From IMG/VR virus record IMGVR_UViG_3300020578_000040, positions 1 to 64,000 of that record: a stretch of 64,000 bases of DNA; one strand, written 5' to 3'. A program made the position numbers and the translations under genes. Positions within the stretch are counted from its first letter, which is position 1, and each line of letters starts with the position of its first letter. This document shows positions 8,431-27,353 of this stretch, in pieces. The DNA is from a virus. The notes below the pieces were generated by a model that worked only from the letters and a program-made list of their open reading frames with translations, was not told where the DNA came from and searched no databases.

Positions 8431-8871
8431 CTAAACGAATACTGGTTGATTCTCCGGCCATACATACGGATGGCTGCCATCCGTTGCCGGCCATTGGGGT
8501 CCGTAGTGGTCCGGGTGCTTGCGGATCAAGTTCGACCGGTGCGAGAGCACAACCTCGTCATCGTCGATCCACCACGGCATCTCAGCAGGCTCGTCCGGCA
8601 CGTGAGGCGCGAAGGCCAGTATCTTCTCCCGGCAGGTGTCCTTGTAGCCGCGAGCGATCCACTCGTCGCAGATAGCAACACCATAGACCACGAGTGCCTC
8701 GGTGTAACCCTGCCACATCTTGACCGCCGGATGGGTGCTCCATCCCCTGGCCTGATTGGTGATGCAACGGAGAATCTGGTACGTCTCTACCCGCTGCTTT
8801 CCGAGTCGCTGTCGGTCAAGGCACCGTGCCGTGGCTGAAAAGTCGGACCCATAAGGTACAAATGTCTGCAT
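8431..8871 (-). CDS. pyrimidine-dimer DNA glycosylase (MSMEG_6728 / T4 endoV-like)
   Basis: MQTFVP...LDRQRLGKQRVE...HPAVKMW...SHRSNL. Confidence 0.9.
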   Translation of the reverse strand: MQTFVPYGSDFSATARCLDRQRLGKQRVETYQILRCITNQARGWSTHPAVKMWQGYTEALVVYGVAICDEWIARGYKDTCREKILAFAPHVPDEPAEMPWWIDDDEVVLSHRSNLIRKHPDHYGPQWPATDGSHPYVWPENQPVFV

Positions 8872-8925
8872 AGTAATTCCCTCCTTCCAGAGAACCTACC
8901 GTGCAGGCACTTGCCCGCCAAATCG

Positions 8926-9456
8926 TCAGCCGGGGACAGGCCCCGAGAAGCGCCATGGACGCCATCCGCTGCCCTCCCACAGGCGGAGCGCGAAGGTCAG
9001 GTTCTTCTCGGCGTCGAACATGTCCTTGGGGTGGTTCCATCCCATGTCCGACAGCCACTTGCTATGAACCTTGTTGATTTGGGTCAAGCCGGCGTCAGCA
9101 CCGTTCCAGGCTTCTACCTGGCACCGTGATTCGCGCCAGATGACCTGGCTCAAGAACGACCATTCCTCTTCGGGCCAGCCGACCTGAATGGCTAGGTCGT
9201 GCCATTCCCCACACTTGCCATAGGTGAGGCGGGCCAGTCCCACCCAGTCGACACCGCTCAAGTCGGGGACCGTTGTGGTTGGGGCCGGCGGAACCGTCTC
9301 GGGAGCCGCCGTCGTAGTTGGGGCCGGCGCTGCAACGGTCGTGACTGGACTAACCGTCACCTCCGTCCGCTGTGAGTCGCCCTGAGGATTCGCGCATCCG
9401 GCGAGGGCGGTGATTGCAGCAATGGCAATAACGGTTTTGTTCAGTCTTCGGCGCAT
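8926..9456 (-). CDS. lipoprotein with lytic transglycosylase (SLT-like) domain
   Basis: Lipobox LAGC, Thr/Pro linker, WRESRC...DAGLTQIN. Confidence 0.8.
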   Translation of the reverse strand: MRRRLNKTVIAIAAITALAGCANPQGDSQRTEVTVSPVTTVAAPAPTTTAAPETVPPAPTTTVPDLSGVDWVGLARLTYGKCGEWHDLAIQVGWPEEEWSFLSQVIWRESRCQVEAWNGADAGLTQINKVHSKWLSDMGWNHPKDMFDAEKNLTFALRLWEGSGWRPWRFSGPVPG

Positions 9457-9609: not shown

Positions 9610-9824
9610 AGCCCCGCTTTTTGTTTTCCGCTGGGATGGCTGTTGGGCCTCGATGATTTCCCACCATCATGGATTCTAGCCCCGCTCCCTCGATGAAAGC
9701 AATTCGACTGCCGGGGCTGCGAAGCGACACGCCACCACGGGGCTTGCGGCCGGCGAACCGCGCGTATCGCCCACACGCCGGCAGGATCGGCGCGTATCCC
9801 CGTTCACCCCGGATTCGCGCGTAT
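9610..9824 (+). repeat. regulatory module 1 (AGCCCCGC boxes + 3x GCGCGTAT)
   Basis: A boxes 9610, 9678, inverted 9711, 9737; B boxes 9760, 9790, 9817. Confidence 0.75.
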
Positions 9825-9859
9825 CTGGAGCCTCCCCCGCCCCCGACAGGCTCGCCCGC

Positions 9860-10035
9860 CCCCTGGGGGGTGCTGGGGGTGCTGGGGGCGTTACCCGCCC
9901 CCTGGGGGCGTTCTAGGGGGCGTTCTGGGAGGTCTGGGGCGCCCCTCTATGGGGGGGCGTTCTGGGGGGCGTTCTGGGGGGTCTGGGGGTGCTGGGGCGT
10001 TTCGGGGGTCTGAGCAGGGGAAACGCTGGGGGCAG
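9860..10035 (+). repeat. G-tract repeat (CTGGGGG units), G-quadruplex-prone
   Basis: About 10 runs of 4 or more G on the + strand at the strand-switch point. Confidence 0.7.
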
Positions 10036-10192
10036 ACGCGAAAGACAGGCAAGAAAGTGCCTCTGACCAGGGGTTTTGTTGATTGACTTGACACTTACAA
10101 CACCCAAGGGCTAAGGTGATGTTTGTCGGAGCACAGGGCAACGACACGGAGGGCACACACCCTCCGCCCTACAGAAAGGGAACGGTGTTCAC

Positions 10193-10303
10193 ATGGACCC
10201 CGAAGATTACGACCCCGATTACGAGGGTTACATCGCCGACCCGGAGGCGTTCATCATCGAACTCCTCGGAGAGGATGGGTGGGACATCGACCCCGAGGCG
10301 TGA
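10193..10303 (+). CDS. 36-aa highly acidic peptide (paralog of 10998..11126)
   Basis: MDPEDYDPDYEGYIADPEAFIIELLGEDGWDIDPEA; RBS AGAAAGGG; below ORF-track cutoff. Confidence 0.7.
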   Translation: MDPEDYDPDYEGYIADPEAFIIELLGEDGWDIDPEA

Positions 10304-10309
10304 GCCTCA

Positions 10310-10331
10310 GCCGGGGGGGAAACCCCCCGGC
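10310..10331 (+). terminator. GC hairpin with GAAA loop after gene
   Basis: GCCGGGGGG...CCCCCCGGC stem. Confidence 0.55.
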
Positions 10332-10450
10332 ACCCCGAACCACCCCAGGAGGGGGCTAGGCAGCCGACAGGCATGGGACCTAGTTCGACCGTTCGATTCG
10401 GCACTGGTTCACGATCGGGCACTCCCGCCCGACAGAAAGGAAAGAGACAC

Positions 10451-10564
10451 ATGGACACCTGCCACTACTGCGAGAGAATCCTCACCGATCACATCGTGAG
10501 GCACGGCGACTACCTCGCCTGCGAGACGTGCGAGGCCTGCGAGGAGCCAGAGTACGACGAGTGA
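10451..10564 (+). CDS. 37-aa Cys-rich (Zn-ribbon) peptide
   Basis: CHYC...CETCEAC; RBS AGAAAGGA. Confidence 0.65.
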   Translation: MDTCHYCERILTDHIVRHGDYLACETCEACEEPEYDE

Positions 10565-10635
10565 CCGCCTCGATCCCCCCTCACATCGAGGGGGGACAGG
10601 CACATCCCTGGTTACGCGCTGAGATCGAGGTCGAG

Positions 10636-10890
10636 AGCCCCGCACATAAAGGAAGGCAGGAAGCCCCGCGCTCACTCGACCAAGCGGGGCTGCGGCTCAC
10701 CGCGCGTATGCCGGCGCGTCCGCGTGTCGCGCGTATGCGTGAGTCACGGCGCGTATCGTGGCAGGGCAGGAACGGCGCGTATCTCGCCCCCTCTCCCCAC
10801 CCTCCCCATTCTATGGCGGCGACCCTCTCGCCGTCCACCGGACACCCTGCTAGGAAGGTCACGGTGAGCATAAGTCCTGCTAGATGGCAC
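10636..10890 (+). repeat. regulatory module 2
   Basis: A boxes 10636, 10662, inverted 10684; B boxes 10702, 10729, 10749, 10775. Confidence 0.8.
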
Positions 10891-10997
10891 ATTCTGAGCA
10901 TGATTTGACTCGTCCCCTTGGTGCTGATAGGTTCAGGGTTGTCGGAGCAACCGAGCAACGACACGGGACACACTCCCGAGACCACAGGAGGACGGAC

Positions 10998-11126
10998 ATG
11001 GGACCGGACTACTACGACGACGACTACGAGGGGAACCCCGATTACGAGGGTTACCTGCTCGACGGGGAGGCGTTCATCATCGCACTCCTCGGAGAGGACG
11101 GGTGGGACACCGACCCCGAGGAGTGA
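10998..11126 (+). CDS. 42-aa acidic peptide (paralog of 10193..10303)
   Basis: PDYEGY...EAFII.LLGEDGWD.DPE shared; RBS AGGAGG. Confidence 0.75.
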   Translation: MGPDYYDDDYEGNPDYEGYLLDGEAFIIALLGEDGWDTDPEE

Positions 11127-11220
11127 GCGGTCGGGGTGGGGGCGCAAGCCCCCGCCCCACCCCCTCGGGGAACTGTGCCACACCCTCATGACAGACTGAC
11201 CTCAACAGAAAGGAGCCACC

Positions 11221-11403
11221 ATGTGGCAGGAAGCAAGATGCAAGGGCAAGACCGAACTGTTCTTCGCCCCCCACGGGGAGCGCGAGCAGGCACGGAACGA
11301 GCGAGTGAGCAAGGCTCTCGCGCTCTGCGGAGTCTGCCCCGTCCGTCAGCAGTGTGCCGACGCGAAGGGCGACAACGAGGGAATCTGGGGTGGGGTCGCA
11401 TGA
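11221..11403 (+). CDS. whiB: short WhiB-like Fe-S protein
   Basis: Four Cys (C...CxxC...C) and GIWGG turn; lacks C-terminal helix. Confidence 0.8.
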   Translation: MWQEARCKGKTELFFAPHGEREQARNERVSKALALCGVCPVRQQCADAKGDNEGIWGGVA

Positions 11404-11456
11404 CCCCACCTCACCACCCCGGCAAGATCGAACACCCAACCCAGAAAGGAAACCCC

Positions 11457-11747
11457 ATGAAGAGCATCACTGTCAAAGACCGTGAGTACCCGATCGAGGA
11501 GGTCGAGGTCCCGGAAGGAACCCTGCGATTCGTCACCGCCACGGTGCAGTTCGACGACGACGACACGCCCCTCGATGGCGCGATCATCGCCATCGGAACC
11601 GAGTTCGACGAGTTGGTGACCGCAGAGGCGGCATCCGACGAACTGCTCCGGTTCGATTTGTCGATCTTCTTCTACTGCGCCGACGAGGACGAGTTCATCG
11701 ACCTGGCTGGGAACGGAGTCGCCGGCATGGAGTGGCGGATCGTCTGA
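11457..11747 (+). CDS. acidic hypothetical protein
   Basis: RBS AGAAAGGA. Confidence 0.7.
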   Translation: MKSITVKDREYPIEEVEVPEGTLRFVTATVQFDDDDTPLDGAIIAIGTEFDELVTAEAASDELLRFDLSIFFYCADEDEFIDLAGNGVAGMEWRIV

Positions 11748-11831
11748 CCGACTGGACAGGCTCCCCTGCCACTGCTAGAATCAGTGGTGGGGAAGCCGTC
11801 CCCCTACCTACTACCGAAAGAAAGGAACCCG

Positions 11832-11960
11832 ATGAACCGCAAGAAGTGGAACGAGCAAGATCGATTTGCTTTCGCTACCCAGCGTCTGCGAGCATCGACG
11901 ATGCCGAACAAGAAAGCACAGGCTCGCAAGAGTGCCTGTCGAAAGTGGAGGGCAGAATGA
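11832..11960 (+). CDS. 42-aa basic peptide
   Basis: RBS AGAAAGGA after promoter; MNRKKW...RKWRAE. Confidence 0.6.
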   Translation: MNRKKWNEQDRFAFATQRLRASTMPNKKAQARKSACRKWRAE

Positions 11961-12205
11961 ACTACTACCAAATCCGGGCGCTCGTCCGAGTCGTGTTCTG
12001 GGGAGCGGTCCTGTTCCTCGCCGGCACGGGGTGCGCGAAACTGGTCGAGATGGCTAGCCTCACCGCCGACAACCCGTGCGCGGTGAACGTGAACCGTGAC
12101 TTCACATGGACGACAAACGCGCCACTCAACATCGACCTGTGCGATCACCCCGAGGGGATCATGCTGTTCGATGACGGCCACTGGGAATGGGACTACGAGG
12201 GATAG
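11957..12205 (+). CDS. membrane-anchored hypothetical protein
   Basis: ATGA coupling, N-terminal TM. Confidence 0.6.
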   Translation: MNYYQIRALVRVVFWGAVLFLAGTGCAKLVEMASLTADNPCAVNVNRDFTWTTNAPLNIDLCDHPEGIMLFDDGHWEWDYEG

Positions 12206-12231
12206 GAGGCCTCGGCCCAACCAGGGCCGGA

Positions 12232-12520
12232 AGCCCCGCCTCGATCATTGTAACGACACATCGAGGTCGTAAGCCCCGCTCACGCTGGTGACCAGCGGGG
12301 CTCGAGGGCCGGCAGAGAATACGGGGCTCTCGCCCACCGCGCGTATCCTCGCTCGCCGTGAGCGCGCGTATCGCCAGACCGGCGCGTATGTACGGAACCG
12401 GCTGAAACCGCGCGTATCCCACCGGCTCGTCCTGTCCTATCTATGCCCCCCAACCTAGCAGACCGAGCCACGGTAGGCACAAGAGCAGGGGTTTCGGTGC
12501 GTTTGCCCTGCTAGATGGCA
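12232..12520 (+). repeat. regulatory module 3
   Basis: A boxes 12232, 12272, inverted 12295, 12321; B boxes 12339, 12364, 12382, 12410; CACGGTAGGCAC near 12469. Confidence 0.8.
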
Positions 12521-12596
12521 CGATTTGACTCGGCTCCTTAGGGCTGATAGGTTCAGGTTTGTCGGCAACACCGCCGACCGAAGCAAAGGAGCCACC

Positions 12597-12863
12597 ATGC
12601 TGTGGAGGCAGGTACTCACCACCATCCAGTCCGACGACCTGAGCGTCTGCCCGCCCGACCTGCGGGACGAGATTCGTCAGGCCTGTGACGAACTCATGGC
12701 CGTGAACGTGGGCGAACGCACCACCAGCGTCGGACTCACGACCCGTCAGGTGTTCGACCTCGCCCGTCGGTTCGCCACCTCGCCCGACCTCCGTGAGGAG
12801 TCGCTCATCTGGAAGCGGCACATCATCCGGCACTACTGCTGGGTCTACCGCCGACCGATTTGA
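12597..12863 (+). CDS. hypothetical protein
   Basis: RBS AAAGGAG; stop codon lies in the next -35 box. Confidence 0.7.
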   Translation: MLWRQVLTTIQSDDLSVCPPDLRDEIRQACDELMAVNVGERTTSVGLTTRQVFDLARRFATSPDLREESLIWKRHIIRHYCWVYRRPI

Positions 12864-12934
12864 CAGTCCCCTCTACCCCTGATAGGTTCAGGGGTGGAGG
12901 GAACACCACCCACCACCAACCCCGAAAGGAAGCC

Positions 12935-13147
12935 ATGCCCACCATGCCCATGCCCACCCTGTCCCCCGAGGCCGACGCTCGGCTCGTCATGCCCCGAGCG
13001 TACCTCGCTCAGGCTCGTTCCTACTGTGCCGAGGTGTACGCCGACGCTGACTCCACGCTCACCGAGAAGTGGGAGGCCTCAGCCCTGCTCGCCACGGCGG
13101 AGAGCAACTTCCGCACCGCCCTCACTCGGGAGTTGGTGGGGCGATAA
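12935..13147 (+). CDS. hypothetical protein
   Basis: RBS GAAAGGA. Confidence 0.65.
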   Translation: MPTMPMPTLSPEADARLVMPRAYLAQARSYCAEVYADADSTLTEKWEASALLATAESNFRTALTRELVGR

Positions 13148-13196
13148 GCCCCACCCACCCCGAACCCATCTCACCAACCCAGAAAGAGAGAAACCC

Positions 13197-13556
13197 ATGA
13201 CCACACTCACCCAGTCAGTCATCGACTACCTGAACGCCCGCAAGGCCTGCGAGGAAGCGGAGCAGGCGAAAGCCCGAGCCGAAGCCATGCTCCAGCAGGC
13301 CTACGCCAAAGCCGGCGTGGACTTCGCAGTCGTGGACGGCACGAAGGTCGCCATCGTCAGGGGCGAGCGTCCTAAGTACGACCCGACCCGACTGGCGGAA
13401 CTCGTCACCAGCGAGGTGTTCGCCAGCGTCACGAAGCAGGAAGTGGACGGCACGAAGTGGAAGGCGGCTCTGACCCTCGGGAACATCGCCCCCGAGGTGG
13501 CGGAAGCCGTGACCACGCTGACCACCTACCAGCAGGTGCGAGTCAGCAAGGTCTGA
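13197..13556 (+). CDS. coiled-coil protein, Gam/Gp157-like (paralog of 21896..22285)
   Basis: N-terminal helix plus beta region, KQxVD, QVRV shared with paralog. Confidence 0.6.
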   Translation: MTTLTQSVIDYLNARKACEEAEQAKARAEAMLQQAYAKAGVDFAVVDGTKVAIVRGERPKYDPTRLAELVTSEVFASVTKQEVDGTKWKAALTLGNIAPEVAEAVTTLTTYQQVRVSKV

Positions 13557-13665
13557 CCGAGGGACGGGGGGCGAAAGCCCCCCACCCTCCCCCGATTTGA
13601 CAGTCTCCCTTACCCCTGATAGATTCAGAGGTGAGGGGAAACCCCAACAGCAGAAAAAGGAAACC

Positions 13666-14100
13666 ATGACCACCATCACCCAGATCGCGAGCACGATCGA
13701 CGAACTTGTCCACCGAGAGTTGGGCGACAACCAGTTCGACATGTACAGTCGCCTGTATGTCACCGACCCCGATGGGGCTTGGATGATCGGACAGTCGCAC
13801 GACCCGTACGACATGTTCGACGGCGACACCGCCGTCACGCGCCCCCGTGGGGCGACCGCCGTGGGCTTCGTGTGTACGGGCTGGGCGGCTCCGATCACGG
13901 ACACGCCCACGGACACGCCCCCGAGCCAGAGTCCTGATCGTATCCGAGTGCGAATCACCGTCGCCTACAACGGCTCCGAGTGGACGACCGTAATGCGTCG
14001 CGAGGGCGAGAACACGCCGGACATCATGGAGGAAGCCGGAGCAGGCCCGCTTGCCGACGCAATCGAGTTCTGGTGGGCAGAGGCCGAGGTCGCCTTCTGA
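13666..14100 (+). CDS. hypothetical protein
   Basis: Promoter plus RBS. Confidence 0.7.
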   Translation: MTTITQIASTIDELVHRELGDNQFDMYSRLYVTDPDGAWMIGQSHDPYDMFDGDTAVTRPRGATAVGFVCTGWAAPITDTPTDTPPSQSPDRIRVRITVAYNGSEWTTVMRREGENTPDIMEEAGAGPLADAIEFWWAEAEVAF

Positions 14101-14170
14101 CCCACTCCGAGGCTGGGGGGCGCAAGCCCCCTAGCCACCCCAACATCAACTATCACCCCGAGAGGAACAC

Positions 14171-14377
14171 ATGAACATCACCATCACGACCACCACCGAG
14201 ACCCTTCAGAACATCGAGACCCTGCTCTGGGACTACGAGCGAGCGCTCGATGATCACCTGTACCGAATCTTCCCCGAGGCCTCGACCCGTCAGGCTCTGA
14301 ACGACATCCACACTCTGCGGGCCGACCTGAACCGAATGATCGGTCAGGCCGAGCGTCAGATTCTCGCCAAGCAGTGA
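14171..14377 (+). CDS. hypothetical protein
   Basis: RBS GAGAGGA. Confidence 0.65.
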   Translation: MNITITTTTETLQNIETLLWDYERALDDHLYRIFPEASTRQALNDIHTLRADLNRMIGQAERQILAKQ

Positions 14378-14393
14378 TCGAGGTGTAGTCCCC

Positions 14394-14603
14394 TCAGGCT
14401 TGAGCGTCCCACTTACCGAGTGGGCATCGGGCCGAGGGGACACGCACCTTGAGTGGCATCACGCACCCGCACTCACGGCACTGGCTCAGCGCATTGAGTC
14501 GATCGCAGTCCATACAGATCGCGAGCCGGCTCTCCTTGACCTCGTGTGATACGCGCACCCAGGGCAGTCGAAGAATGTCGAGTGGTGTCGCGTCGTCGTC
14601 CAT
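14394..14603 (-). CDS. small Zn-finger protein (CxxC...CxxCGC...CPLGKW)
   Basis: Common phage Cys-rich family; antisense to array. Confidence 0.75.
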   Translation of the reverse strand: MDDDATPLDILRLPWVRVSHEVKESRLAICMDCDRLNALSQCRECGCVMPLKVRVPSARCPLGKWDAQA

Positions 14604-14606
14604 GGA

Positions 14607-14820
14607 AGCCCCGCTTACTACAATAGCAGCAGAGCCCCGCGTGCATTCGTTCTGCCGGGGCTGCAGCGCGCGCGATCGCGCGTATCTCAGGATCGGCGCG
14701 TATCCCTGGGGCCGACGAGATTGGCGCGTATCTCCACCCTGCCGGCCCCATCTATGAAGGGCCGGCCCGGCCCCCTATCTATGGCCGGCCCCTATCTATA
14801 GGGCCACGGTTGGCACATGG
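14607..14820 (+). repeat. regulatory module 4
   Basis: A boxes 14607, 14633, inverted 14655; B boxes 14678, 14696, 14724; CCCC(T)ATCTAT x3; CACGGTTGGCAC. Confidence 0.8.
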
Positions 14821-14893
14821 CCGGTTTGACACCGACCCTTGGGACTGATAGGTTCAGGTTTGTCGGCAACCCCGCCGACTCAGAAAGGAAACC

Positions 14894-15037
14894 ATGACCA
14901 CCGACACCTGCGAACACTGCCAGGAAGAGCAAGGCCACTACAGAAAGTCGTTCGACACTGTGCTCTGCGACGAGTGCTTATGCGCTTGGGCAGACGGAGT
15001 GCGCGAGCGCGAGCGCGACCTCGACTGGGGAGACTGA
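14894..15037 (+). CDS. 47-aa CxxC...CxxC peptide
   Basis: RBS AGAAAGGA. Confidence 0.65.
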   Translation: MTTDTCEHCQEEQGHYRKSFDTVLCDECLCAWADGVRERERDLDWGD

Positions 15038-15042
15038 CAACC

Positions 15043-15207
15043 ATGCACACCATCAACCTCCGCGCTGGCGACAACTACCTCGTCCTGACGGACGACGAGA
15101 GCAACTTCGTGGACTTGTTCTACAACTACGAGCAGGCCCAAGAAGTTGCCAACCTGATCCTGGAGGAAGGCTCCAGCAAAGTCCAGGTCATCAGGATCAC
15201 CCTCTGA
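15043..15207 (+). CDS. hypothetical protein
   Basis: RBS GGGGAG. Confidence 0.6.
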   Translation: MHTINLRAGDNYLVLTDDESNFVDLFYNYEQAQEVANLILEEGSSKVQVIRITL

Positions 15208-15259
15208 CCAATCCCGGCCGGGGGCGCAAGCCCCCGGCCACCAAACAGAAAGAGAAACA

Positions 15260-15544
15260 ATGGGACACCAATCAGCAACCGAGATGGCAGGAATGCCGAT
15301 CAGCCTCGAACAGCAACTCACGTGGCACCTCACGTCGAACCACTACCCGCCGGTTCCGCTCAGCATGATCGAGCCGTGCATGAAGGCCATCGACGCGATC
15401 GTCATGGACGAGCCGAACACGCTCATCGAGTTGCCGGACGGAATCACCTACCGTGACTCGACTCACGCGCCGGCGTGGGCGATCGCGGAGGGTCACCACC
15501 TCCAAGCGTTCATCGACTCCTGCTTCGACGAGTACGAAGACTGA
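15260..15544 (+). CDS. conserved phage hypothetical protein (HLTSNHYPPVP)
   Basis: RBS; recognisable motif. Confidence 0.7.
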   Translation: MGHQSATEMAGMPISLEQQLTWHLTSNHYPPVPLSMIEPCMKAIDAIVMDEPNTLIELPDGITYRDSTHAPAWAIAEGHHLQAFIDSCFDEYED

Positions 15545-15616
15545 GTTGACAACCTCCCCTGCTACTGTAGATTCAGTAGCAGGGGGCCCAACCCCATCAA
15601 ACAGAAAGAAGGAATC

Positions 15617-15862
15617 ATGTCCGACCACATCCAGCGCATCCAGCCCATCCTGCCCAACGGCGCGATGTTCTCCATCGTGGAGTCGTTCGGCCGCAAAGAG
15701 GTGGCTGTTCTTCAGAACGACGAGTTCGTCTCGCCCACCGAGTGGGCCGACATCGACACCGGCGACGACATCGTACGCCTGTCCGACGTGGCCGACGAGT
15801 TGGCCGTGTACCTCATGAAGGCCATCTCGTGGGGCCTCAACAACACGGAGGTGGCGCGATGA
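15617..15862 (+). CDS. hypothetical protein
   Basis: Promoter plus RBS. Confidence 0.65.
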   Translation: MSDHIQRIQPILPNGAMFSIVESFGRKEVAVLQNDEFVSPTEWADIDTGDDIVRLSDVADELAVYLMKAISWGLNNTEVAR

Positions 15863-16089
15863 GCCTGGGCGCGCTCGCACAGGACATCCTCGACGACAAG
15901 TGGGTTCTCTGCTCGATCACGGAGGCTCTAGAGCACGCGCTCGATGAGCACCTGATCGACAGGACCTACCTCGTCTACGACGAAGCCGGCGACAGCAGGC
16001 CCGCCACGGACATCGAGTTTCTCATGGCGGTTCAGGAGATACTCGTCGCGCTCAATGCCGGCGCCATCGGCGACTCAGCCGTAGCATGA
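15859..16089 (+). CDS. hypothetical protein
   Basis: ATGA coupling, RBS GGAGG. Confidence 0.65.
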   Translation: MSLGALAQDILDDKWVLCSITEALEHALDEHLIDRTYLVYDEAGDSRPATDIEFLMAVQEILVALNAGAIGDSAVA

Positions 16090-16144
16090 GGTGAAGGGGG
16101 TCAGGGCAACCTGGCCCCACTCGCCCGCCCACCATCTGGGCTAG

Positions 16145-16380
16145 AGCCCCGTCCCCATACGAGGGTCGAGAGCCCCGCGCACATCGCTAGATGCGGGGCT
16201 GCCGAAGCAAATAACTAGCGGGGCTGCCGGCCAAAACCGCGCGTATCAAAACCGCGCGTATCAAAACCGCGCGTATCCCAGGATGGCGCGTATGCCGGCA
16301 CAGCGCGTATGCCCTCGCGCGTGCGCACGGTGTGCGTATGTGCGTGCGTGCGCCCGTTCCTCTCTCCCTCCACCACCTCG
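16145..16380 (+). repeat. regulatory module 5
   Basis: A boxes 16145, 16171, inverted 16193, 16218; B boxes 16239, 16254, 16269 (perfect 15-bp tandem), 16286, 16303. Confidence 0.85.
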
Positions 16381-16462
16381 GCCCGATTTGACAGCGACCC
16401 CTGGGGCTGATAGGTTCAGGGTTGTCGGGGAGAACGGCTCCCCAACAAGAAAGGAGCGCACA

Positions 16463-16783
16463 ATGCGCTGGAACGCAAGCACTCAGGACGTGGTGGACCA
16501 CCTCGTCTTCTCAGGAGCGGACACGTACGACTGGTATCGCCAGTTGGATGTGGACGGCGACGATGCCATCACCATCGGGATGGACGATCCGAACGACGAG
16601 GACGGTGCCATCTTCACGACGATGTCGGCTACCGCCATCCGCCGGCTGGCGGAGCAGTTCGTCAAGGAGGAGAAGCCCGGCTACCGGGTTGTCGCCCGGG
16701 CGATCCAGGACGACGACTTCGATTCGGACGCCGCCGACGTGGTCCTTCAGTGGGCTGTGTTCGGGACGCTCGTCTACGGCTGA
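16463..16783 (+). CDS. conserved phage hypothetical protein (D.DAADVVLQ..VFG.LVYG)
   Basis: C-terminal motif; RBS AGAAAGGAG. Confidence 0.75.
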   Translation: MRWNASTQDVVDHLVFSGADTYDWYRQLDVDGDDAITIGMDDPNDEDGAIFTTMSATAIRRLAEQFVKEEKPGYRVVARAIQDDDFDSDAADVVLQWAVFGTLVYG

Positions 16784-16856
16784 TTTGACTCAGCCCCCTG
16801 CCACTGATAGATTCAGTGGTGGGGGGCAACCCCACCAACAACAGAAAGGAAACCCA

Positions 16857-17216
16857 ATGAACATCCTGTTCATCCACGACGACTCCGAGCGAGGACTCGT
16901 CAATGTCCGCAACCTTGCGCCCGAGCACATCGACATCAACTCGATGGTCGGCGGTTGGTTCGACTGCGTACGGTCCCGTGACGGTGCGATCGTCGGGTAC
17001 GTCAATGACACCGGCTTGACCGATGGCATGGCGCCCAACCTCGTCGCATCGCTCCTGTTCGCTCGTCCGCTCTACGGTCCCTGCGTGGTCGTGGGCGGTC
17101 TCAACGAAGCCGGCGAGTACGACGGCGACAACCACGACGTGCCGGAGAGCGTCATCCGGGGAGTGCTCCCGCTGAACGACATCTTCCGGATGCGGCCCGA
17201 GTCCACCACGGTCTGA
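16857..17216 (+). CDS. DUF3846-like protein
   Basis: VGGWFD...YVNDTG...PN.VAS...GPCVVVG. Confidence 0.7.
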   Translation: MNILFIHDDSERGLVNVRNLAPEHIDINSMVGGWFDCVRSRDGAIVGYVNDTGLTDGMAPNLVASLLFARPLYGPCVVVGGLNEAGEYDGDNHDVPESVIRGVLPLNDIFRMRPESTTV

Positions 17217-17284
17217 TTTGACCGCTCCCCCTGCGCCTGATAGATTCAGGTGTGGGGGGAGAACAACCCCACAGAGAGGAACCC

Positions 17285-17464
17285 ATGACGAAGTTTTACA
17301 TGGTCGAATACATCGTCCGTACCTACGTCCACGCCGACGACTCAGATCAGGCGCGCGAACTGTCGGCACGAATGCTCGACGAGAAAGAAGCACGAGGCGA
17401 ACTCGCCCGCGAGTGTGTCGAACTCGACTGGTTCGAGTTGGACGAAGAAGGAGAGATGATCTGA
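17285..17464 (+). CDS. acidic hypothetical protein
   Basis: Promoter plus RBS. Confidence 0.65.
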   Translation: MTKFYMVEYIVRTYVHADDSDQARELSARMLDEKEARGELARECVELDWFELDEEGEMI

Positions 17465-17467
17465 ACC

Positions 17468-17701
17468 ATGTTCCGTGAACCAATCGAGGAGCCAGAGATG
17501 ACCAAACTCAACCCCCAGGAGCGAGCCCTGCTCATCCTGAACAACGCCAAGCGTGACATCACCAACATCATGGCTCTCCCCATGGAGGACTACGAGGTGA
17601 TCGAACGGCAACTACGTGACTCGATCGCGTGGCTCATGTCGGGAAGCCGGCACAGGCCTCTGATCCGCGTCGCCTTGACAAAGGGCGAAGAGCCCTTCTA
17701 A
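17468..17701 (+). CDS. hypothetical protein
   Basis: Operon packing. Confidence 0.55.
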   Translation: MFREPIEEPEMTKLNPQERALLILNNAKRDITNIMALPMEDYEVIERQLRDSIAWLMSGSRHRPLIRVALTKGEEPF

Positions 17702-17743
17702 CATCAACCAACAGCAACACCCACCTATAGAAAGGAACTACAA

Positions 17744-17953
17744 GTGGAAGCAACAGAAACCAAGAAGAAGATCACCGATACGAACCTCGATGAGTTTAAG
17801 CACCGAATGGGCACCATCGACGTGGAGGGACTGATCGTCTCGATCACCGTGACGGACGCTCGATTCCGCTACGGACACATCGACCTTAAGGTCACGCCCA
17901 TCTCGGGCCGTGGCGAGCGTTGGGTCGAGAGCACCAAGGTGACTCTGATCTAA
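17744..17953 (+). CDS. hypothetical protein
   Basis: RBS AGAAAGGA, GTG start. Confidence 0.65.
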   Translation: MEATETKKKITDTNLDEFKHRMGTIDVEGLIVSITVTDARFRYGHIDLKVTPISGRGERWVESTKVTLI

Positions 17954-18181
17954 TCAGAACAGAGTTAGAGACATGTCAGGGGGGTTGTCTTTCAGATCAA
18001 CACAGGTCTGACAGGCAACCCCGCCGATCATCTTCAGCATCTTCACATCGCCGGCATTGAGTTTGCCCTTCTTCGTGATGCGGGTATAGCCCTCGATGCG
18101 CAGCCACACGTCCTTCTCAATCCGAAGAATGTCGCGGCCACACAGGTCGCACTGATACAGCGGGGGAAGATGTCCGTCCAT
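17954..18181 (-). CDS. small CxxC...CxxC protein, antisense to array
   Basis: CDLC...CQTC. Confidence 0.6.
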   Translation of the reverse strand: MDGHLPPLYQCDLCGRDILRIEKDVWLRIEGYTRITKKGKLNAGDVKMLKMIGGVACQTCVDLKDNPPDMSLTLF

Positions 18182-18197
18182 CGCTCAATCGTATCGA

Positions 18198-18455
18198 AGC
18201 CCCGCACTCAACTCAAGACGGAAGCCCCGCTTTCCCAGGGGAGGAGTCTGTCTAGCGGGGCTGCGAATCGCTCGATCCTTACGGGGCTGCGGCGCGTAAC
18301 CGAGGCCCTCGACGCCGGCCACCAACCGCGCGTATCCGACACCCGAGCACCGCGCGTATCCTGAACCGCGCGTATGCGCACGCACGGTAGGCACATGGGC
18401 GCGTATGCGCTCGCGCGCGCGTGTGCGTGTTCCTCTCTCCCCCCTCCACGGAGCG
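18198..18455 (+). repeat. regulatory module 6
   Basis: A boxes 18198, 18223, inverted 18255, 18281; B boxes 18328, 18352, 18368, 18399; CACGGTAGGCAC. Confidence 0.85.
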
Positions 18456-18619
18456 TCGATTTGACACGCTCACTACGGTCTGATAGGTTCAGTGTTGTCG
18501 GGGAAACCGACACCCCCGAATCCCCTCCACGGAGCGTCGATTTGACACGGCACACTGTGGGTGATAGGTTCGGGGTTGTCGGGGAAACCTGACGCTACCT
18601 ACTACAGAAAGGAATCATC

Positions 18620-19141
18620 ATGATTTGTCGTTCATGCGACACGCCCGCAGTGGGCAAGAGTGCCTACTGCTCCACTCACCGCGCCGAGGCACGGGCCGCG
18701 TGGAAGGCCAAGATCAGCGACGAGGCCGAGGCCCGCAAGGCCCGCAAGGCCGGTCACGCCGAACTCTGGTCGCGCGCCGTTCAGGCCGGTATCAAGGCGT
18801 GGCACGAAGCCATCCCCACCCCCATGCTCGTGGGCACGGCGAAGGGTCTGTTCGACGACTCGTTCGACGAGACCAAACCCGTGTACCACGTGAGCGAGGG
18901 CGTGTGCGGTTTCGCGTCGCTCGTCGTGAAGCCCGCGAACTCGTCGTTCGCTCACTGGCTCAAGGCCAACGTGCGCACGAGCAAGCACTACGGCGGTGGC
19001 CTCTCCGTGTGGTCGTCCGTCATCGTGCCGGAGGACGCGCGCAGTCAGTCCTACGAGCGCAAGGACGCGGCCATGCGCGCCGTGGCCGAGGTGCTCCGCG
19101 AGGCCGGTATCAAGGCCTCGTGCTGGAGCAGGCTCGACTGA
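18620..19141 (+). CDS. conserved phage hypothetical protein (GVCGFA...QSYERK..A...SRLD)
   Basis: Recognisable family motif; tandem promoters upstream. Confidence 0.75.
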   Translation: MICRSCDTPAVGKSAYCSTHRAEARAAWKAKISDEAEARKARKAGHAELWSRAVQAGIKAWHEAIPTPMLVGTAKGLFDDSFDETKPVYHVSEGVCGFASLVVKPANSSFAHWLKANVRTSKHYGGGLSVWSSVIVPEDARSQSYERKDAAMRAVAEVLREAGIKASCWSRLD

Positions 19142-19248
19142 GCGAGGGCGGGGGGCGCAAGCCCCCCACTCCCCCTCGATTTGACAGACCCACCTACCGC
19201 TGATAGATTCAGTGGTGGGAGCAATACCCCAACCAAGAAAGAGGAACA

Positions 19249-19614
19249 ATGACCATCACCAACATCACGGGAACCGTGCTCATCGGACACGTGGGCGTGG
19301 ACTCCGGCCAACTCATGATCTGCGACCCGTGCTACATCAAGGCCGACGACTGGGCCGACCAGCCGTACGCCCCCGCAAACGCCGTGGACGGCAAGTACCC
19401 GTTCACCTACAACGGCGCGTGTGGCGCGACGCTCAATGAGGACAGTGCTGGGCAGTTGGGCACGTTCGATACCGGCATCGCGTTCGCATCGGGCTACGGC
19501 GACGGCACCTACCCCGTGTACGCCACGTACGTCGATGGGCGCATCGCCAGTGTCGAGATCGTGCTCATCAGCGAGGACGAGGACGACGAGGACGAGGAGG
19601 AGTACCTCCTCTGA
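19249..19614 (+). CDS. DUF4241-like protein
   Basis: GVDSGQLMICDP...SGYGDGTYPVY. Confidence 0.7.
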   Translation: MTITNITGTVLIGHVGVDSGQLMICDPCYIKADDWADQPYAPANAVDGKYPFTYNGACGATLNEDSAGQLGTFDTGIAFASGYGDGTYPVYATYVDGRIASVEIVLISEDEDDEDEEEYLL

Positions 19615-19688
19615 TTTGACAGCGACCCCTGCCCCTGATAGATTCAGGGGTGGGGGAAGCAATACCCATCAGCAACAGAAAGGAAATC

Positions 19689-19964
19689 ATGACCACCATC
19701 ACCACCATCAAGCAACGGAACATCGACGCCGGCCACTACTTCTTCGACACAAAGGCCATGCGGTTCTTCAACAGTCGCGTGAGTCGCACCACCTACGGCG
19801 ACTTCTTCGTGACCAGCGAGAAAGGCCCCGACAAGGTGCGCCGGTACACGGTGCGCTACAGCGACCCCGCCACCGGCCACATCAACACGGTCGGAGAGTT
19901 CCAGCAGTTCGACACGCTGTGGGGCGCGCTCGCGGAAGCGCGACGCCTCTACCTCGCGATCTGA
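19689..19964 (+). CDS. conserved phage hypothetical protein (GHYFFD..AMRFFNSR)
   Basis: Promoter plus RBS. Confidence 0.75.
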   Translation: MTTITTIKQRNIDAGHYFFDTKAMRFFNSRVSRTTYGDFFVTSEKGPDKVRRYTVRYSDPATGHINTVGEFQQFDTLWGALAEARRLYLAI

Positions 19965-20293
19965 TCGTGCGCTCGTTGTCGGCTCCGTGGCTCTGGTCGT
20001 TCGTCGTCGTGTACGAAGGACGCCCAGAGTCGAGGTTCCGGTTTGGCTCCCCCTGCCGGCTTGTGCGTTCCGTTGATCTTGCCGTGCATGTGTTACTGCC
20101 CGAACTTCTGACACCGCATCTTCCGATCCTGGCGTGCTACCTCCGTTCGACTTCCCCTAGATGGGGTCGAGCGTGGCGTCGCTGGTAGACCCAAATGGCC
20201 AGTTGCTGATTTGACAACCTGTCCCTGCCACCACTAGGATTAGTGGTGGTGGGGGCAACCCAACCAAATACCTACTACAGAAAGGAATCCCCA

Positions 20294-20758
20294 ATGGGAC
20301 TCGATCAGTACCTACACGCAAAGAAATACACCTCGCCCGCCGAATGGCGACCCGAGGCCGAGCGCAAGGCTTACGCCGACATCATGAAGGCGGTGCAAGT
20401 CAGCGAGTTCATGGATGACCACTTGCCCTCCGCAACCGTCGAAGTGATGGTGGCCTACTGGCGCAAGCAGAACGCCATCCACAAGTGGTTCGTGGACAAC
20501 CATCAGGGTGGCGAGGACGACTGCCGTGAGTCCTACGTCGGACGTCAGGGGCTGGAAAGCCTGCGCGACGTCTGTCGCGAGGTGCTGGCCGACCACTCGA
20601 AGGCCGACGAACTCCTGCCCACGGAGTCCGGGTTCTTCTTCGGTGGCACGGAGTACGACAAGTGGTACTTCGATGGGCTGGCCTACACGGTCGAGCGTAT
20701 CGAGAAGTTGCTCACCATGCCCGACGACTGGGACTTCTACTACCAGTCATCGTGGTGA
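20294..20758 (+). CDS. conserved phage protein (MGLDQY...YWRKQNAIHKWF...YQSSW)
   Basis: Recognisable family motif. Confidence 0.8.
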   Translation: MGLDQYLHAKKYTSPAEWRPEAERKAYADIMKAVQVSEFMDDHLPSATVEVMVAYWRKQNAIHKWFVDNHQGGEDDCRESYVGRQGLESLRDVCREVLADHSKADELLPTESGFFFGGTEYDKWYFDGLAYTVERIEKLLTMPDDWDFYYQSSW

Positions 20759-20829
20759 CCCGCTCAGGGGTCGGTCTCTTCGGAGGCCGACCCCACCATC
20801 ATCTACAAACACAGAAACAGGAGAATGAA

Positions 20830-20994
20830 ATGACACTCACCGAATGCGACGTCCAGCGGATCGAAGACCTGCTGAAGGAACTCCCCGCCATGATCGAAGA
20901 GCATGGATACCCGTATGCGCTAGGCGGTGCTGAGTATTGGCTGAAGCGCATCGTCGAATTGTCCGCGCACCAGAAGAAAGGAATTGGGCAATGA
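20830..20994 (+). CDS. hypothetical protein
   Basis: RBS AGGAG. Confidence 0.6.
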   Translation: MTLTECDVQRIEDLLKELPAMIEEHGYPYALGGAEYWLKRIVELSAHQKKGIGQ

Positions 20995-21215
20995 ACAACG
21001 AGGAAGCCAAGTGCAAGGGCAAGGGCAAAATCTTCTTCGCCCCTCACGCAGAGCGACCCCAGGCCCGCGTCCGTCGCGAGGCCATCGCCATCGCCCTCTG
21101 CCTGTCGTGCCCACTCGTCGATGAGTGTCGAGTGGCTGGCGCGAATGAGGAGCACGGCATCTGGGGTGGCACCACCGAGCGCGACCGCGGAATGGTCAAG
21201 GAGCGAGCCCGCTAA
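20991..21215 (+). CDS. whiB: WhiB-like transcription factor
   Basis: Four Cys, HGIWGGTTERDR. Confidence 0.85.
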   Translation: MNNEEAKCKGKGKIFFAPHAERPQARVRREAIAIALCLSCPLVDECRVAGANEEHGIWGGTTERDRGMVKERAR

Positions 21216-21230
21216 ATAGCCAGCCATTAT

Positions 21231-21246
21231 CCGAACAAATGTTCGG
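21231..21246. promoter_or_regulatory. LexA/SOS-box-like palindrome CCGAAC-AAAT-GTTCGG
   Basis: Matches Gram-positive/actinobacterial CGAAC-N4-GTTCG. Confidence 0.5.
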
Positions 21247-21316
21247 GTGTTGCTGGATGACGGCCGGCGTTCTCGGTTAGGGTGTGCTCGACGCACAACC
21301 TCCATGTGTGTCCGAG

Positions 21317-21590
21317 AGCCCCGCCGTTTCTTTCCTCCTTTCTGGACGGCGGGGCTTCTCGTATTCTGGAGCCCCGCACACTGCGCTGCCCTGGAGCCCC
21401 GCTCGCACTCGATCCAGCGGGGCTCGCGCGGCCACGGACCAGCGGGGCTGCGGCGTTCGCGCGTATGTCTTACGCGGCCTCACGATTCGCGCGTATGTAA
21501 TGGGCCGGCAGATTCGCGCGTATGTCTCCCACTTCGCGCGTATGTAGGCCACGGTAGGCACATGACGATCCACGCGCGCGTAATCTTTGT
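21317..21590 (+). repeat. regulatory module 7
   Basis: A boxes 21317/21349(inv), 21370, 21395, inverted 21417, 21442; B boxes 21459, 21489, 21516, 21536; CACGGTAGGCAC. Confidence 0.85.
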
Positions 21591-21895
21591 GGTGTCCCCT
21601 CGATTTGACAGAGGGTGGCAGGGCTGATAGGTTTGGGTTTGTCGGGGCAACTCGACACCAAGCCAACTCGATTTGACCAGCCCTGTATGGTCTGATAGAG
21701 TTCGGTTTGTCGGGGCAACTCGGCAGGCCTGCTATGACGCACTATCTAAGTGACTCGCCCGATTTGACGGTGACTCACCCACCTGATAGATTCAGGTTTG
21801 TCGAGTTCTCCCGACACCTAGCCGATTCGATTTGACAGGCTCACACCTGTCCGATAGATTCGGAAACGCAATACCTACTACCGAAAGGAATACCA

Positions 21896-22285
21896 ATGTC
21901 CCTTACCATCGACCGTGCTATTGCCGATCTCTTGGTTCTCCGTGACAAGGAGAAGGAGATCGAGCAGGCCAAGCGAGACACGGAGGCTCTGCTCGTCGCC
22001 CTGTTCGACGACGCAGGAATCGACCACTACGAGACCACCGACAAGGTGCGTGTCGCCGTGGAGAACCGTCCCCGTCGCTCATTCGACATGGACAGTCTGC
22101 TGGCGAACCTGCCGGCGACCGTCCTCAACATGGTGCTGAAGCAGACCGTCGATTCGTCGGCGTTCGACAGTGCCGTGGAGACCGGCCTCGTCCCGACCCC
22201 CGTGGTCGAGCAGGCCGTCACGATCTCGTATTCCACGCAAGTGCGTGTGTACGGGCAGAAGGGTGTTCGGGGCGACCGCTCCTGA
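21896..22285 (+). CDS. coiled-coil protein, Gam/Gp157-like (paralog of 13197..13556)
   Basis: Four tandem promoters upstream; shared motifs. Confidence 0.65.
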   Translation: MSLTIDRAIADLLVLRDKEKEIEQAKRDTEALLVALFDDAGIDHYETTDKVRVAVENRPRRSFDMDSLLANLPATVLNMVLKQTVDSSAFDSAVETGLVPTPVVEQAVTISYSTQVRVYGQKGVRGDRS

Positions 22286-26517: not shown

Positions 26518-26535
26518 TCACTGGTGGTAGGTGAC

Positions 26536-26570
26536 GCAGAGGGGCGGGCCGAAAGGCTCGCCCCTTTGTG
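26536..26570. terminator. bidirectional hairpin between convergent genes
   Basis: AGGGGCGGGCC-GAAA-GGCTCGCCCCT. Confidence 0.65.
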
Positions 26571-26572: not shown

Positions 26573-26842
26573 TTACTTGCGTAGAAAGTTGTCGAGTGTT
26601 CGCCAGTACCGCCACGCAACGCCGGCACCGACCAATGGCAACAGCCGTGGCTGGACAGCCAGCACCTCAGCCTCGTTGAGGTTGAGGAGAATCGCGTAGG
26701 CCAGCACGCCCTCGAAGGCACCGGTCACCGCAGCGAGGATCAGTCCGACTGGCGTATTGACCCGACGCACGAACACCCGTTCATCGTCATCGTCCCACTC
26801 GTACTCGACTTCGCGCTTGTCGGTTGAACGCAACTGCTTCAC
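26573..26842 (-). CDS. small 2-TM membrane protein
   Basis: Hydrophobic segments; RBS AAGGAAAGG. Confidence 0.6.
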   Translation of the reverse strand: MKQLRSTDKREVEYEWDDDDERVFVRRVNTPVGLILAAVTGAFEGVLAYAILLNLNEAEVLAVQPRLLPLVGAGVAWRYWRTLDNFLRK

Positions 26843-27213
26843 TGTGCCTTTCCTTTCAGGATTTGATGGACGCGCTGACGCGACAAACCTACTCGATCCG
26901 CGATCTGCTGTAGGCTCAGTCGCATCCCGCGCAGCGTGTGGACATCACGGTGCATAGCGATGTTCATCTTCGCCCCAGGCGCACGAGCCTCCCACTCCCA
27001 TGAAGGGATGTGCTCGAAGGCCTGAGCCTGCTCGATGGTCAAGAGCCCCGCTCGGTAGCGACTCTTGATGTAACTGGCCCACCGGCCGATGGCGACTCGT
27101 TCGCCGGCCGCACCGCGCGTATTGTGCGACAGCGGGATATTTGTGTGGCCATTCTCTCGCGCGTATTTCTCGATCATGTGAACGCGCGTATGGAACTGTT
27201 CGTCTCGGGTCAT
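26839..27213 (-). CDS. helicase-associated (HA) domain + sigma70-r4-like HTH protein; candidate regulator
   Basis: Y..ENGHTNIP...IGRW...YRAGLL....W.W then SLQQIADRVGLSRQRVHQIL. Confidence 0.75.
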   Translation of the reverse strand: MTRDEQFHTRVHMIEKYARENGHTNIPLSHNTRGAAGERVAIGRWASYIKSRYRAGLLTIEQAQAFEHIPSWEWEARAPGAKMNIAMHRDVHTLRGMRLSLQQIADRVGLSRQRVHQILKGKAQ

Positions 27214-27219
27214 GTCAAT

Positions 27220-27249
27220 AAGTTAGCCCACGGTGCGCGTATGTGTCAA
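27220..27249 (-). promoter_or_regulatory. leaderless-type promoter TTGACA-18-TAACTT of HA-HTH gene, GCGCGTAT box in spacer
   Basis: -10 ends 6 nt before ATG; no SD. Confidence 0.6.
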
Positions 27250-27353
27250 GGTTTGCGCGGATTGTTTCGATTTGACGGCCAGCCATTTATCTGATAGATT
27301 TGGCTTTGGCGGTTGAGAGATTGCCATTTAGTACCTACTACCAAAGGAGAGTT

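Follow-up and report, generated by a model that had tools for sequence, protein, structure and literature searches.

The DNA analysed here (the window) is the first 64 kb of one 81,366-bp virus record, IMG/VR record IMGVR_UViG_3300020578_000040 (54% GC), and our subject is a set of repeated intergenic modules among its early genes. Leftward genes fill positions 78-9456, a rightward array of mostly tiny genes (60-63% GC) runs from about 10.1 to 35 kb, and from about 36 kb the minus strand carries large late genes at 46-50% GC. Proteins that could be assigned include SSB, DUF932, an AAA_5/CobT-like pair, a Mu Gam-like protein, a Toprim plus DnaB-like primase/helicase, two WhiB-like proteins, one ribbon-helix-helix (RHH) protein and one HA-HTH protein. 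No Pfam family could be assigned to most open reading frames at 10-22 kb, and for many of them even close relatives lack an ortholog; a megablast search of INPHARED phages with 9.5-22 kb returned nothing. The DNA was detected in more than 20 lake-water metagenome runs, and the virus is best described as an uncultured, lytic-looking lake-water phage. An actinobacterial host is suggested by the WhiB genes and by weak similarity to Arthrobacter, Gordonia and Microbacterium phages; identity of the primase/helicase to proteins of Arthrobacter phages is only about 33%.

An earlier reading of the letters alone, which we call the original prediction, had described seven modules between about 9.6 and 21.3 kb. 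All seven lie where it had put them, and we add an eighth at 27044-27300, so that the modules are numbered M1-M8 (Table 1). Below, box A stands for AGCCCCGC (inverted arm GCGGGGCT), box B for GCGCGTAT and box C for CACGGT-NN-GC(A/G)(C/T)A(T/A)G. The order within a module is fixed: a cluster of direct and inverted box A copies, an array of box B, then box C, and finally one to four promoters. The fixed order thus agrees with the original grammar, except that box A occurs in both direct and inverted form, not on the plus strand only. Between 9610 and 21590, box B has exactly the 27 plus-strand copies that had been counted, grouped 3+4+4+3+5+4+4 from M1 to M7, and one further copy on the minus strand at 14549; box A has 22 copies there.

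These words are far more frequent than expected from dinucleotide-preserving shuffles of the window. Box B was found 39 times (1.73 expected), box A 25 times (2.91 expected) and the promoter TTGAC-N16-19-GATAGNTT 17 times (0.02 expected), in line with the claim that a TTGAC promoter opens each new gene block. Two rarer words, CACGGTNGGCAC (4 observed, 0.09 expected) and CCTATCTAT (3 observed, 0.17 expected), are also in excess, the latter being confined to M3 and M4. The other extra box of the original prediction, beginning with CACGGT, stands in a looser form (ACGGT-NN-GC[AG][CT]A[TA]G) that occurs once in each of M2-M8; M2 and M3 also carry CTGCTAGATGGCAC. Sites of the LexA, CRP and DnaA types are absent from the modules of this phage.

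The 7-mer cores of box A follow the pattern A A A' A' in M1, M3, M6 and M7, A A A' in M2 and M4, and A A' A' in M5 (A', inverted arm). Inverted copies are separated by 14, 15 or 24 nt and direct copies are spaced at 25-26 nt. Between the last GCGGGGCT and the first box B there are always 10-16 bp, and the distance from the last box to the -35 element is variable (30-123 bp). Box B has an 8-bp core, or 10 bp with weak flanks, and is present in three to five copies per module, on the plus strand in M1-M7, at a spacing of 15-51 bp. Its copies lie 100-300 bp upstream of the next start codon, and only the one at 34153 overlaps a start. Most copies (31 of 39) belong to the eight arrays, the late half of the genome has almost none, and 36/39 are oriented with local transcription (p=2e-8). 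The box A copies at 27044, 31643 and 34112 lie inside coding sequence, where they encode conserved residues, and fit the background expectation.

Metagenome contigs related to this phage, named by L-numbers, show which parts of the modules are kept. L116 covers 13.6-25.3 kb at 72-83% nucleotide identity and carries M4-M7, and L115 and L002 carry M8, with the boxes kept and the flanks diverged. Against these three contigs, column identity is 97.5% in box A, 85.9% in box B and 97.1% in box C, compared with 62.8% in other non-coding columns (Fisher p from 1e-10 to 1e-19). By this comparison, boxes A, B and C are under purifying selection and the spacers are not. The lower value for box B reflects box turnover: relative to L116, M4 has gained one box B and lost one, keeping three, and M5 has five copies here and four in L116. 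Thus the number and identity of the boxes are maintained and their exact positions are not. The original claim that boxes but not spacers are selected holds across genomes in this way; within a module, however, flanking bases are shared (a 15-bp tandem repeat in M5, TTC-box-GT in M7), which indicates that arrays also grow by local duplication.

The more distant relative L041 (59% identity in the CobT-like protein) has modules at the HA-HTH locus and ahead of the CRSCD and Gam-like genes. In L116 and L041 alike, M6 has a syntenic counterpart before the same 'M(I/A)(C/T)CRSCD' gene and M7 before the Gam-like gene. In L041, box A and its spacing are identical and box C is recognisable, and box B has shifted to (G)TGCGCGT(A/G). 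Syntenic modules with a shifted box rule out neutral duplication and show that the box drifts between lineages as the grammar stays.

To cover the wider family, about 165 related contigs were fetched via the DUF932, CobT-like and AAA_5 proteins. Box A is shared widely: on viral contigs L029-L114 it occurs 312 times against 53 expected (5.9-fold), with a density of 10-18 per 20 kb in many of the contigs, even where GC is 47%. Box B is limited to the closest relatives, and other relatives carry hyper-repeated boxes of their own, one per lineage. In L070, L034, L096 and L166 this box is TTATCCACA(GG), the DnaA-box consensus, and in L121 (65% GC) it is GTCCACAGG, a high-GC DnaA variant; other lineages have AGTAGATAAGT (L065, 58 copies), AATAGATAACT (L057), GTGTAGGTAAGT (L101) or TGTCACACC (L090). 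The cassette that precedes each early unit of L070 (60-4150) consists of a hairpin followed after 9-10 bp by five to nine perfect DnaA boxes in both orientations, then TCGAAC-N4-GTTCG (LexA type) and GTGAC-N5/6-GTCAC (CRP type). In L065 (1-16400), some (G)AGTAGATAAGT copies stand directly before start codons after GGAG, an SAS-like arrangement, and others lie 17 bp after (T/A)TGACGGTGGTGGAA, the most enriched 8-mer context of the set (GACGGTGG 401 times), which is possibly a promoter type of lower-GC relatives. An IMG/VR scan for three copies of box B returned 24 contigs. All are unrelated, with plain tandem repeats whose period is fixed and whose spacers are conserved, and hence uninformative about a shared reader.

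The box A copies of M1-M7 can pair into stem-loops with loops of 12-24 nt, no U tract and a 3' flank of GCGG or GCCG, 130-250 bp upstream of the promoter. They lack the makeup of an intrinsic terminator (GC-rich stem, 3-8-nt loop and U-rich tail), and a terminator scan missed all of them, finding only the one at 26535-26570, at the end of the array. Compared with shuffles, the RNA folds of M7, M3 and M2 stand out (z in Table 1) and those of the remaining modules are weak. The outermost arms are lengthened by 3-4 pairs in four modules, for instance as GUCG/CGGC with a U.G pair. Of the single-base interior arm variants among relatives, six are AGTCCCGC, in which a U.G pair is preserved on the transcribed strand, and one is of the opposite kind, a modest hint that the structure may form in RNA or in one DNA strand. 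In cellular genomes, AGCCCCGC...GCGGGGCT is a common terminator stem in which pairing extends across the 'spacer', frequently with T runs after it, so the word itself is a generically good stem base. A search of 185,579 genomes for a three-box pattern gave 45 matches, mostly ordinary terminators with stems that run on across the 'spacer' and, as this stem is so common, in a number compatible with chance, and no prophage with this module grammar. We consider that box A is better read as the arms of a stem-loop than as a separate protein box. A different hairpin, with an 11-bp stem, a CU-rich loop (CCUCCUUUCU-like) and then a weak T-rich tail, occurs at 21317-21356 and at L041:7157-7196; it is kept in L116, and in L041 with loop changes.

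The promoters are near-identical predicted sigma-A promoters with an extended -10, (GA)TTTGAC-N17-(C)TGATAG(G/A)TT (core TTGAC-N17-TGATAGNTT), present in 17 copies. A looser pattern gives 21 promoter-like sites between 9 and 28 kb, and a sigma-70 scan gives 18 on both strands. Downstream of each promoter (10116-21900) is a conserved 5' leader, GTT(T/G)TCGGGG(A)AAC...CCGAC, which forms a small hairpin and is followed by TACCTACTAC and by AAAGGA ahead of the start codon; the leader is kept in L116 and partly in L041. We considered its motif TTGTCGGGG as a PafBC-type promoter element and rejected it, as inspection of the sequences gave no TAnnnT at the required distance. Many promoters, whether or not they belong to a module, are closely preceded by C-rich, G-poor plus-strand tracts of 40-60 nt (10770-10832, 12416-12457, 13571-13620, 16349-16402, 19155-19203 and 24648-24699), which may be rut-like Rho entry sites or promoter-upstream elements. 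Between M1 and the promoter at 10088, positions 9860-10020 hold about a dozen tandem G-rich units of the type GGGGG(C/T)G(C/T)T(C)T (44% G on the plus strand), which may form G-quadruplexes or a protein array in the divergent control region.

The original prediction had also proposed that gene cassettes are shuffled at the modules. Exchange does occur between relatives, but its breakpoints are at the promoters and not at the boxes. Among the ends of indels and replacements relative to L116 and L115, 11/22 fall within -25 to +75 of a -35 element (2.7 expected, p=2e-5), and boxes A and B themselves are not breakpoints. For example, L116 has a 428-bp cassette between two copies of the 16785 promoter, and promoter copy number has changed after M7. 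As shown by comparison of these genomes, the identical promoters also provide the homology for gain, loss and exchange of cassettes among related phages. In one contig of run X21, positions 16783 and 19149 are joined through 11 other letters, near the promoters at 16785 and 19181; the joint is weak, with a 20-nt side, and may be a natural cassette-deletion variant.

Which protein might read box B? The HA-HTH protein had been named as a candidate, and we reject it: it has 93 orthologs in the fetched loci, as a core gene of the phage clade, and its recognition helix LSRQR(V/I)HQI is invariant in all of them whatever the private box, so it cannot explain box specificity. As a reader of box A it is also a weak candidate, since L090, L097 and L121 have many box A copies and no HA-HTH gene in the covered DNA, and at least 25 HA-HTH-positive loci have no box A. 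Its gene is leaderless, with the ATG six bases after a minus-strand promoter that is back-to-back with the promoter at 27272. Copies of box B lie in two reading frames of its 5' coding part, and the box A at 27044 encodes its conserved A-G-L. Because the fourth box B and box C of M8 sit in the spacer of its promoter, the HA-HTH gene is probably a target of the box B reader and not the reader. The start codon of the RHH gene (from 34159) is overlapped by the box at 34153; the RHH protein was likewise rejected as reader, as relatives that carry other boxes keep the same beta-strand, KQVLIRA. Searches of the early proteins with Pfam, PHROGs and the ESM Atlas, including the 173-aa protein encoded after M6, gave no further DNA-binding candidate. 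To our knowledge, box B matches no regulator motif. Among 401 Microbacteriaceae genomes, paired boxes were found in only 16, mostly in palindromic repeats similar to repetitive extragenic palindromic (REP) elements and not upstream of genes. Three Microbacteriaceae genomes (G192, G011 and G020; L251-L259) have multi-copy REP-like intergenic palindromes containing box B, such as GGTCGAGTAGCGCGCAGCGCGTATCGAGACC and CTAATACGCGCGCTTCCGC.

We lean, with restrained confidence, to the reading that the modules are boundary cassettes similar to the promoter early stem-loops (PeSLs) of T4-type phages, each made of a terminator or insulator, an operator and a promoter, in which the box B array is a DNA site for a lineage-specific regulator. 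The modules would bound the early transcription units of a lytic-looking 81-kb actinobacterial phage. At the end of an upstream gene block, the box A arms would fold into nested stem-loops, most likely in the transcript, that may attenuate or terminate transcription or protect the 3' end of the upstream RNA. The three to five co-oriented box B copies and the one box C would form a double-stranded DNA (dsDNA) array for one sequence-specific, lineage-private protein, encoded by phage or host. Its binding would control about eight units together, most likely through repression or as a polar roadblock or insulator; this mode is favored by the near-consensus sequence that the downstream promoters already have and by the box within the promoter spacer of HA-HTH. 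Transcription would then restart from one to four sigma-A promoters that are close to consensus and carry the conserved leader, and hairpin and array may cooperate. Box B is read as a DNA operator mainly because sister phages have sites for known dsDNA-binding proteins in the same slot; the M8 array, which has no hairpin and lies antisense within a coding region and in a promoter spacer, also favors DNA recognition. Among the roles originally suggested, a master switch for the early array comes nearest to this: coordinate control is the most likely role of the box B array, and gene blocks are opened by consensus promoters.

Several observations weigh against the boundary-cassette reading. No convincing binder of box B was predicted among the early proteins scanned, and the DNA-binding elements of HA-HTH and RHH do not vary with the box type. 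Neither the spacing between boxes (15-51 bp) nor the distance from box to promoter (30-123 bp) is helically phased, which is unusual for classical activators and repressors. The box A hairpins are only putative terminators, since U tracts are missing and the loops span 12-24 nt, in contrast to the terminator at 26535; three of the seven module folds are no better than shuffles, and unpaired extra box A copies at a fixed 25-26 nt are unlike a simple terminator. The boxes and neighboring tracts form perfect alternating purine-pyrimidine runs, so that a Z-DNA or topological role is conceivable. No usable transcript ends came from the contigs of four runs, of which the RNA ones are short pieces of relatives.

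The modules could instead act at the RNA level, with the hairpin and the repeated GCGCGUAU bound by an RNA-binding protein in read-through transcripts, as a means of nut-like antitermination or of controlling RNA processing or stability. In favor of this, every box lies on the transcribed strand, a constant 10-16 nt separates the hairpin from the first box, the U.G-compatible arm variants point to RNA, hairpins without a U tract make read-through likely, and the self-complementary CGCGCG core would allow boxes to pair in RNA. We nevertheless judge this unlikely: the M8 array has no hairpin, is antisense to a gene and lies downstream of the 26535 terminator, where plus-strand RNA should be scarce; in relatives the slot is occupied by DNA sites of the DnaA, LexA and CRP types, in either orientation; the order hairpin, linear boxes, promoter is the reverse of that in nut; and there is no Rfam match. 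If the boxes are instead a decoy or sensor, the 31 clustered copies, multiplied by replication, would titrate or report a host DNA-binding protein, a role that the DnaA-, LexA- and CRP-type arrays of related phages may also have. Perfect host-type DnaA boxes in the same slot of relatives (TTATCCACA, or GTCCACAGG in the 65% GC relative) and the lack of a phage protein that co-varies with the box speak for such a role, but it is improbable given that box B is not known to match any regulator motif, that paired boxes in Microbacteriaceae are rare and mostly REP-like, and that the shifted L041 box is easier to reconcile with a fast-evolving phage protein than with a conserved host factor.

A structural role is very doubtful. 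Here, Z-DNA or gyrase/topoisomerase sites and the cruciform-prone box A would buffer supercoiling between strong tandem promoters, like REP elements or bacterial interspersed mosaic elements (BIMEs). The modules hold 16 of the 26 alternating purine-pyrimidine runs of at least 11 nt in the genome, although such runs are depleted genome-wide (about 42 in simulations), the L041 box GTGTGCGCGTG differs in sequence and is still perfectly alternating, and box A copies alternate in orientation at a fixed spacing, as in BIMEs; yet 31 copies share one exact 8-mer, TAT included, beyond structural need, and the boxes TTATCCACAGG and AGTAGATAAGT of relatives are not alternating. We give scant credence to dedicated recombination sites (integron- or attC-like) or to a centromere or iteron array for partition or replication. 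Gene content does vary cassette by cassette between relatives, and the weak joint between 16783 and 19149 (20-nt side) could be taken as such an event, but breakpoints lie at promoters instead of box A or B, none of the proteins scanned could be assigned to an integrase, ParA or ParB family, and eight dispersed, GC-rich, promoter-proximal arrays of 8-bp boxes fit neither parS nor iterons. The 'ParB-like' open reading frame at 4388-5236 has no Pfam match and belongs only to a PHROG of unknown function. Recent duplication of one intergenic segment, leaving neutral remnants, would explain the local tandem duplications inside M5 and M7; we regard it as virtually discounted, since it is contradicted by the conservation of boxes (86-98%) over spacers (63%) in a relative of 72-83% identity and by the synteny of modules in one with about 59% identical proteins.

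Among known systems, the closest are the PeSLs, in which a strong sigma-70 promoter is joined to a stem-loop rich in G and C runs within hyperplastic regions; small genes of unknown function lie downstream, and recombination between cassettes explains gene gain and loss among relatives (Arbiol et al. 2010, PMC2839356). Likewise, the cassettes described here are repeated in early intergenic regions, carry a predicted strong promoter of host-sigma consensus and lie in a plastic region of small genes without known homologs, where the ends of indels and replacements between relatives cluster at promoters. They differ in that the stem-loop lies 130-250 bp upstream of the promoter and not within or next to it, that its arms are one fixed 8-mer in phased, nested copies, that three to five oriented private boxes and a further box stand between stem-loop and promoter, and that the phage has an actinobacterial host and is unrelated to T4. 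The host-regulator arrays of L070 share the hairpin word, the slot after the hairpin and the position before promoters, but box B has no known host-regulator match and forms direct repeats only.

The stoperators of Cluster A mycobacteriophages (L5/Bxb1) are asymmetric single sites of 13-14 bp, present in dozens genome-wide and bound by the immunity repressor of a temperate phage. Our boxes resemble them as many short, asymmetric sites that are nearly all co-oriented, one of them at the promoter of a regulator gene, but they are 8-10 bp long and form arrays at eight promoter-proximal places of the early arm only, and neither an integrase nor a matching repressor was found among the proteins scanned. 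The start-associated and extended start-associated sequences (SAS/ESAS) of Cluster K mycobacteriophages comprise a conserved 13-bp sequence a few bases upstream of start codons, whereas the boxes here lie 100-300 bp upstream, except at 34153. Of the two resemblances originally noted, that to stoperators extends to orientation only (36/39), and that to SAS/ESAS did not hold. RHH operators such as MetJ metboxes and omega-protein heptad arrays are contiguous, with two to ten repeats of 7-8 bp boxes upstream of promoters; short repeated boxes upstream of promoters and an RHH protein are present here too, but the spacing is 15-51 bp and the RHH beta-strand KQVLIRA is constant across box types. In a lambda-type nut site, a linear boxA and then a short boxB hairpin follow the early promoter, in contrast to the order hairpin, boxes, promoter seen here without an Rfam match. 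Judged by defining features, the modules do not qualify as stoperators, SAS elements, parS arrays or nut sites.

Table 1. Modules, promoters and other features of the early region (window coordinates; inverted copies follow the slash)
Feature	Position	Strand	Details
M1	9610..9824	+	box A 9610, 9678; 7/8 inverted arms 9712, 9738; box B 9760, 9790, 9817; divergent region between leftward and rightward gene arms
First rightward promoter	10088..10116	+	TTGACA-18-TAAGGT; after M1 and G-rich repeat
M2	10636..10933	+	box A 10636, 10662 / 10684; box B 10702, 10729, 10749, 10775; box C 10861; CTGCTAGATGGCAC 10877; promoter 10905-10933; RNA fold z -2.1
M3	12232..12553	+	box A 12232, 12272 / 12295, 12322 (7/8); box B 12339, 12364, 12382, 12410; CCTATCTAT 12436; box C 12470; CTGCTAGATGGCAC 12508; promoter 12525-12553; RNA fold z -2.8
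Stand-alone consensus promoter	12860..12888	+	no module
Stand-alone consensus promoter	13597..13625	+	
M4	14607..14854	+	box A 14607, 14633 / 14655 (7/8); box B 14678, 14696, 14724; CCTATCTAT 14774, 14791; box C 14806; promoter 14826-14854
M5	16171..16416	+	box A 16171 / 16193, 16218; box B 16239, 16254, 16269, 16286, 16303; box C 16327 within 24-nt alternating purine-pyrimidine run; promoter 16388-16416
Stand-alone consensus promoter	16785..16813	+	428-bp cassette insertion site in L116
Stand-alone consensus promoter	17218..17246	+	
M6	18198..18570	+	box A 18198, 18223 / 18255, 18281 (7/8); box B 18328, 18352, 18368, 18399; box C 18384; promoters 18461-18489, 18542-18570
Stand-alone consensus promoter	19181..19209	+	
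Stand-alone consensus promoter	19616..19644	+	replacement breakpoint relative to L116
M7	21317..21860	+	11-bp-stem hairpin 21317-21356; nested A A A' A' 21370, 21395, 21417, 21442; box B 21459, 21489, 21516, 21536; box C 21551; promoters 21605, 21673, 21764, 21832; RNA fold z -4.5
Canonical intrinsic terminator	26535..26570	+	16-bp stem, GAAA loop, T-rich tail; fold z -6.3; only one in rightward array
HA-HTH gene	26839..27213	-	PF03457 + sigma-70 region-4-like HTH; leaderless
M8	27115..27300	+	box B 27115, 27159, 27184, 27235; degenerate copy 27255; box C 27230; promoter 27272-27300; no hairpin
HA-HTH promoter	~27252-27223	-	TTGACA-18-TAACTT; spacer contains box B/C

Elsewhere in the window, the two WhiB-like genes lie at 20991-21215 (plus strand, immediately upstream of M7) and at 35142-35405 (minus strand). 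A low-GC block on the minus strand (43309-49923) encodes a tryptophan halogenase (46726-48201, E 3e-101), two 2-oxoglutarate-Fe(II) oxygenases and a family-2 glycosyltransferase, an auxiliary gene set that is unusual for a phage.

A more speculative proposal, which we hold only tentatively, would place these modules in a wider setting. A large clade of freshwater actinophages may share a 'plug-in' slot after the box A stem-loop, in which each lineage installs sites for a different DNA-binding protein, in some cases DnaA, LexA or CRP of the host and here, through box B, a global regulator of host or phage that has yet to be described. The phage would sense or sponge that protein to time or insulate its roughly eight units, and the hairpin with the bound array would act as a factor-dependent terminator that replaces the U tract.

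The early regions of uncultured actinophages consist mostly of tiny genes, and this phage offers a clean, repeated grammar that is kept in its relatives. Since sister lineages hold recognisable host-regulator sites in the same slot, the identity of the reader of the private box is directly testable. A second testable question is whether hairpins lacking a U tract, which are common in Actinobacteria, terminate transcription only with a DNA-bound roadblock. Beyond this, the genome comparison provides a case of PeSL-like cassette exchange through promoters in a phage that is not of the T4 group.

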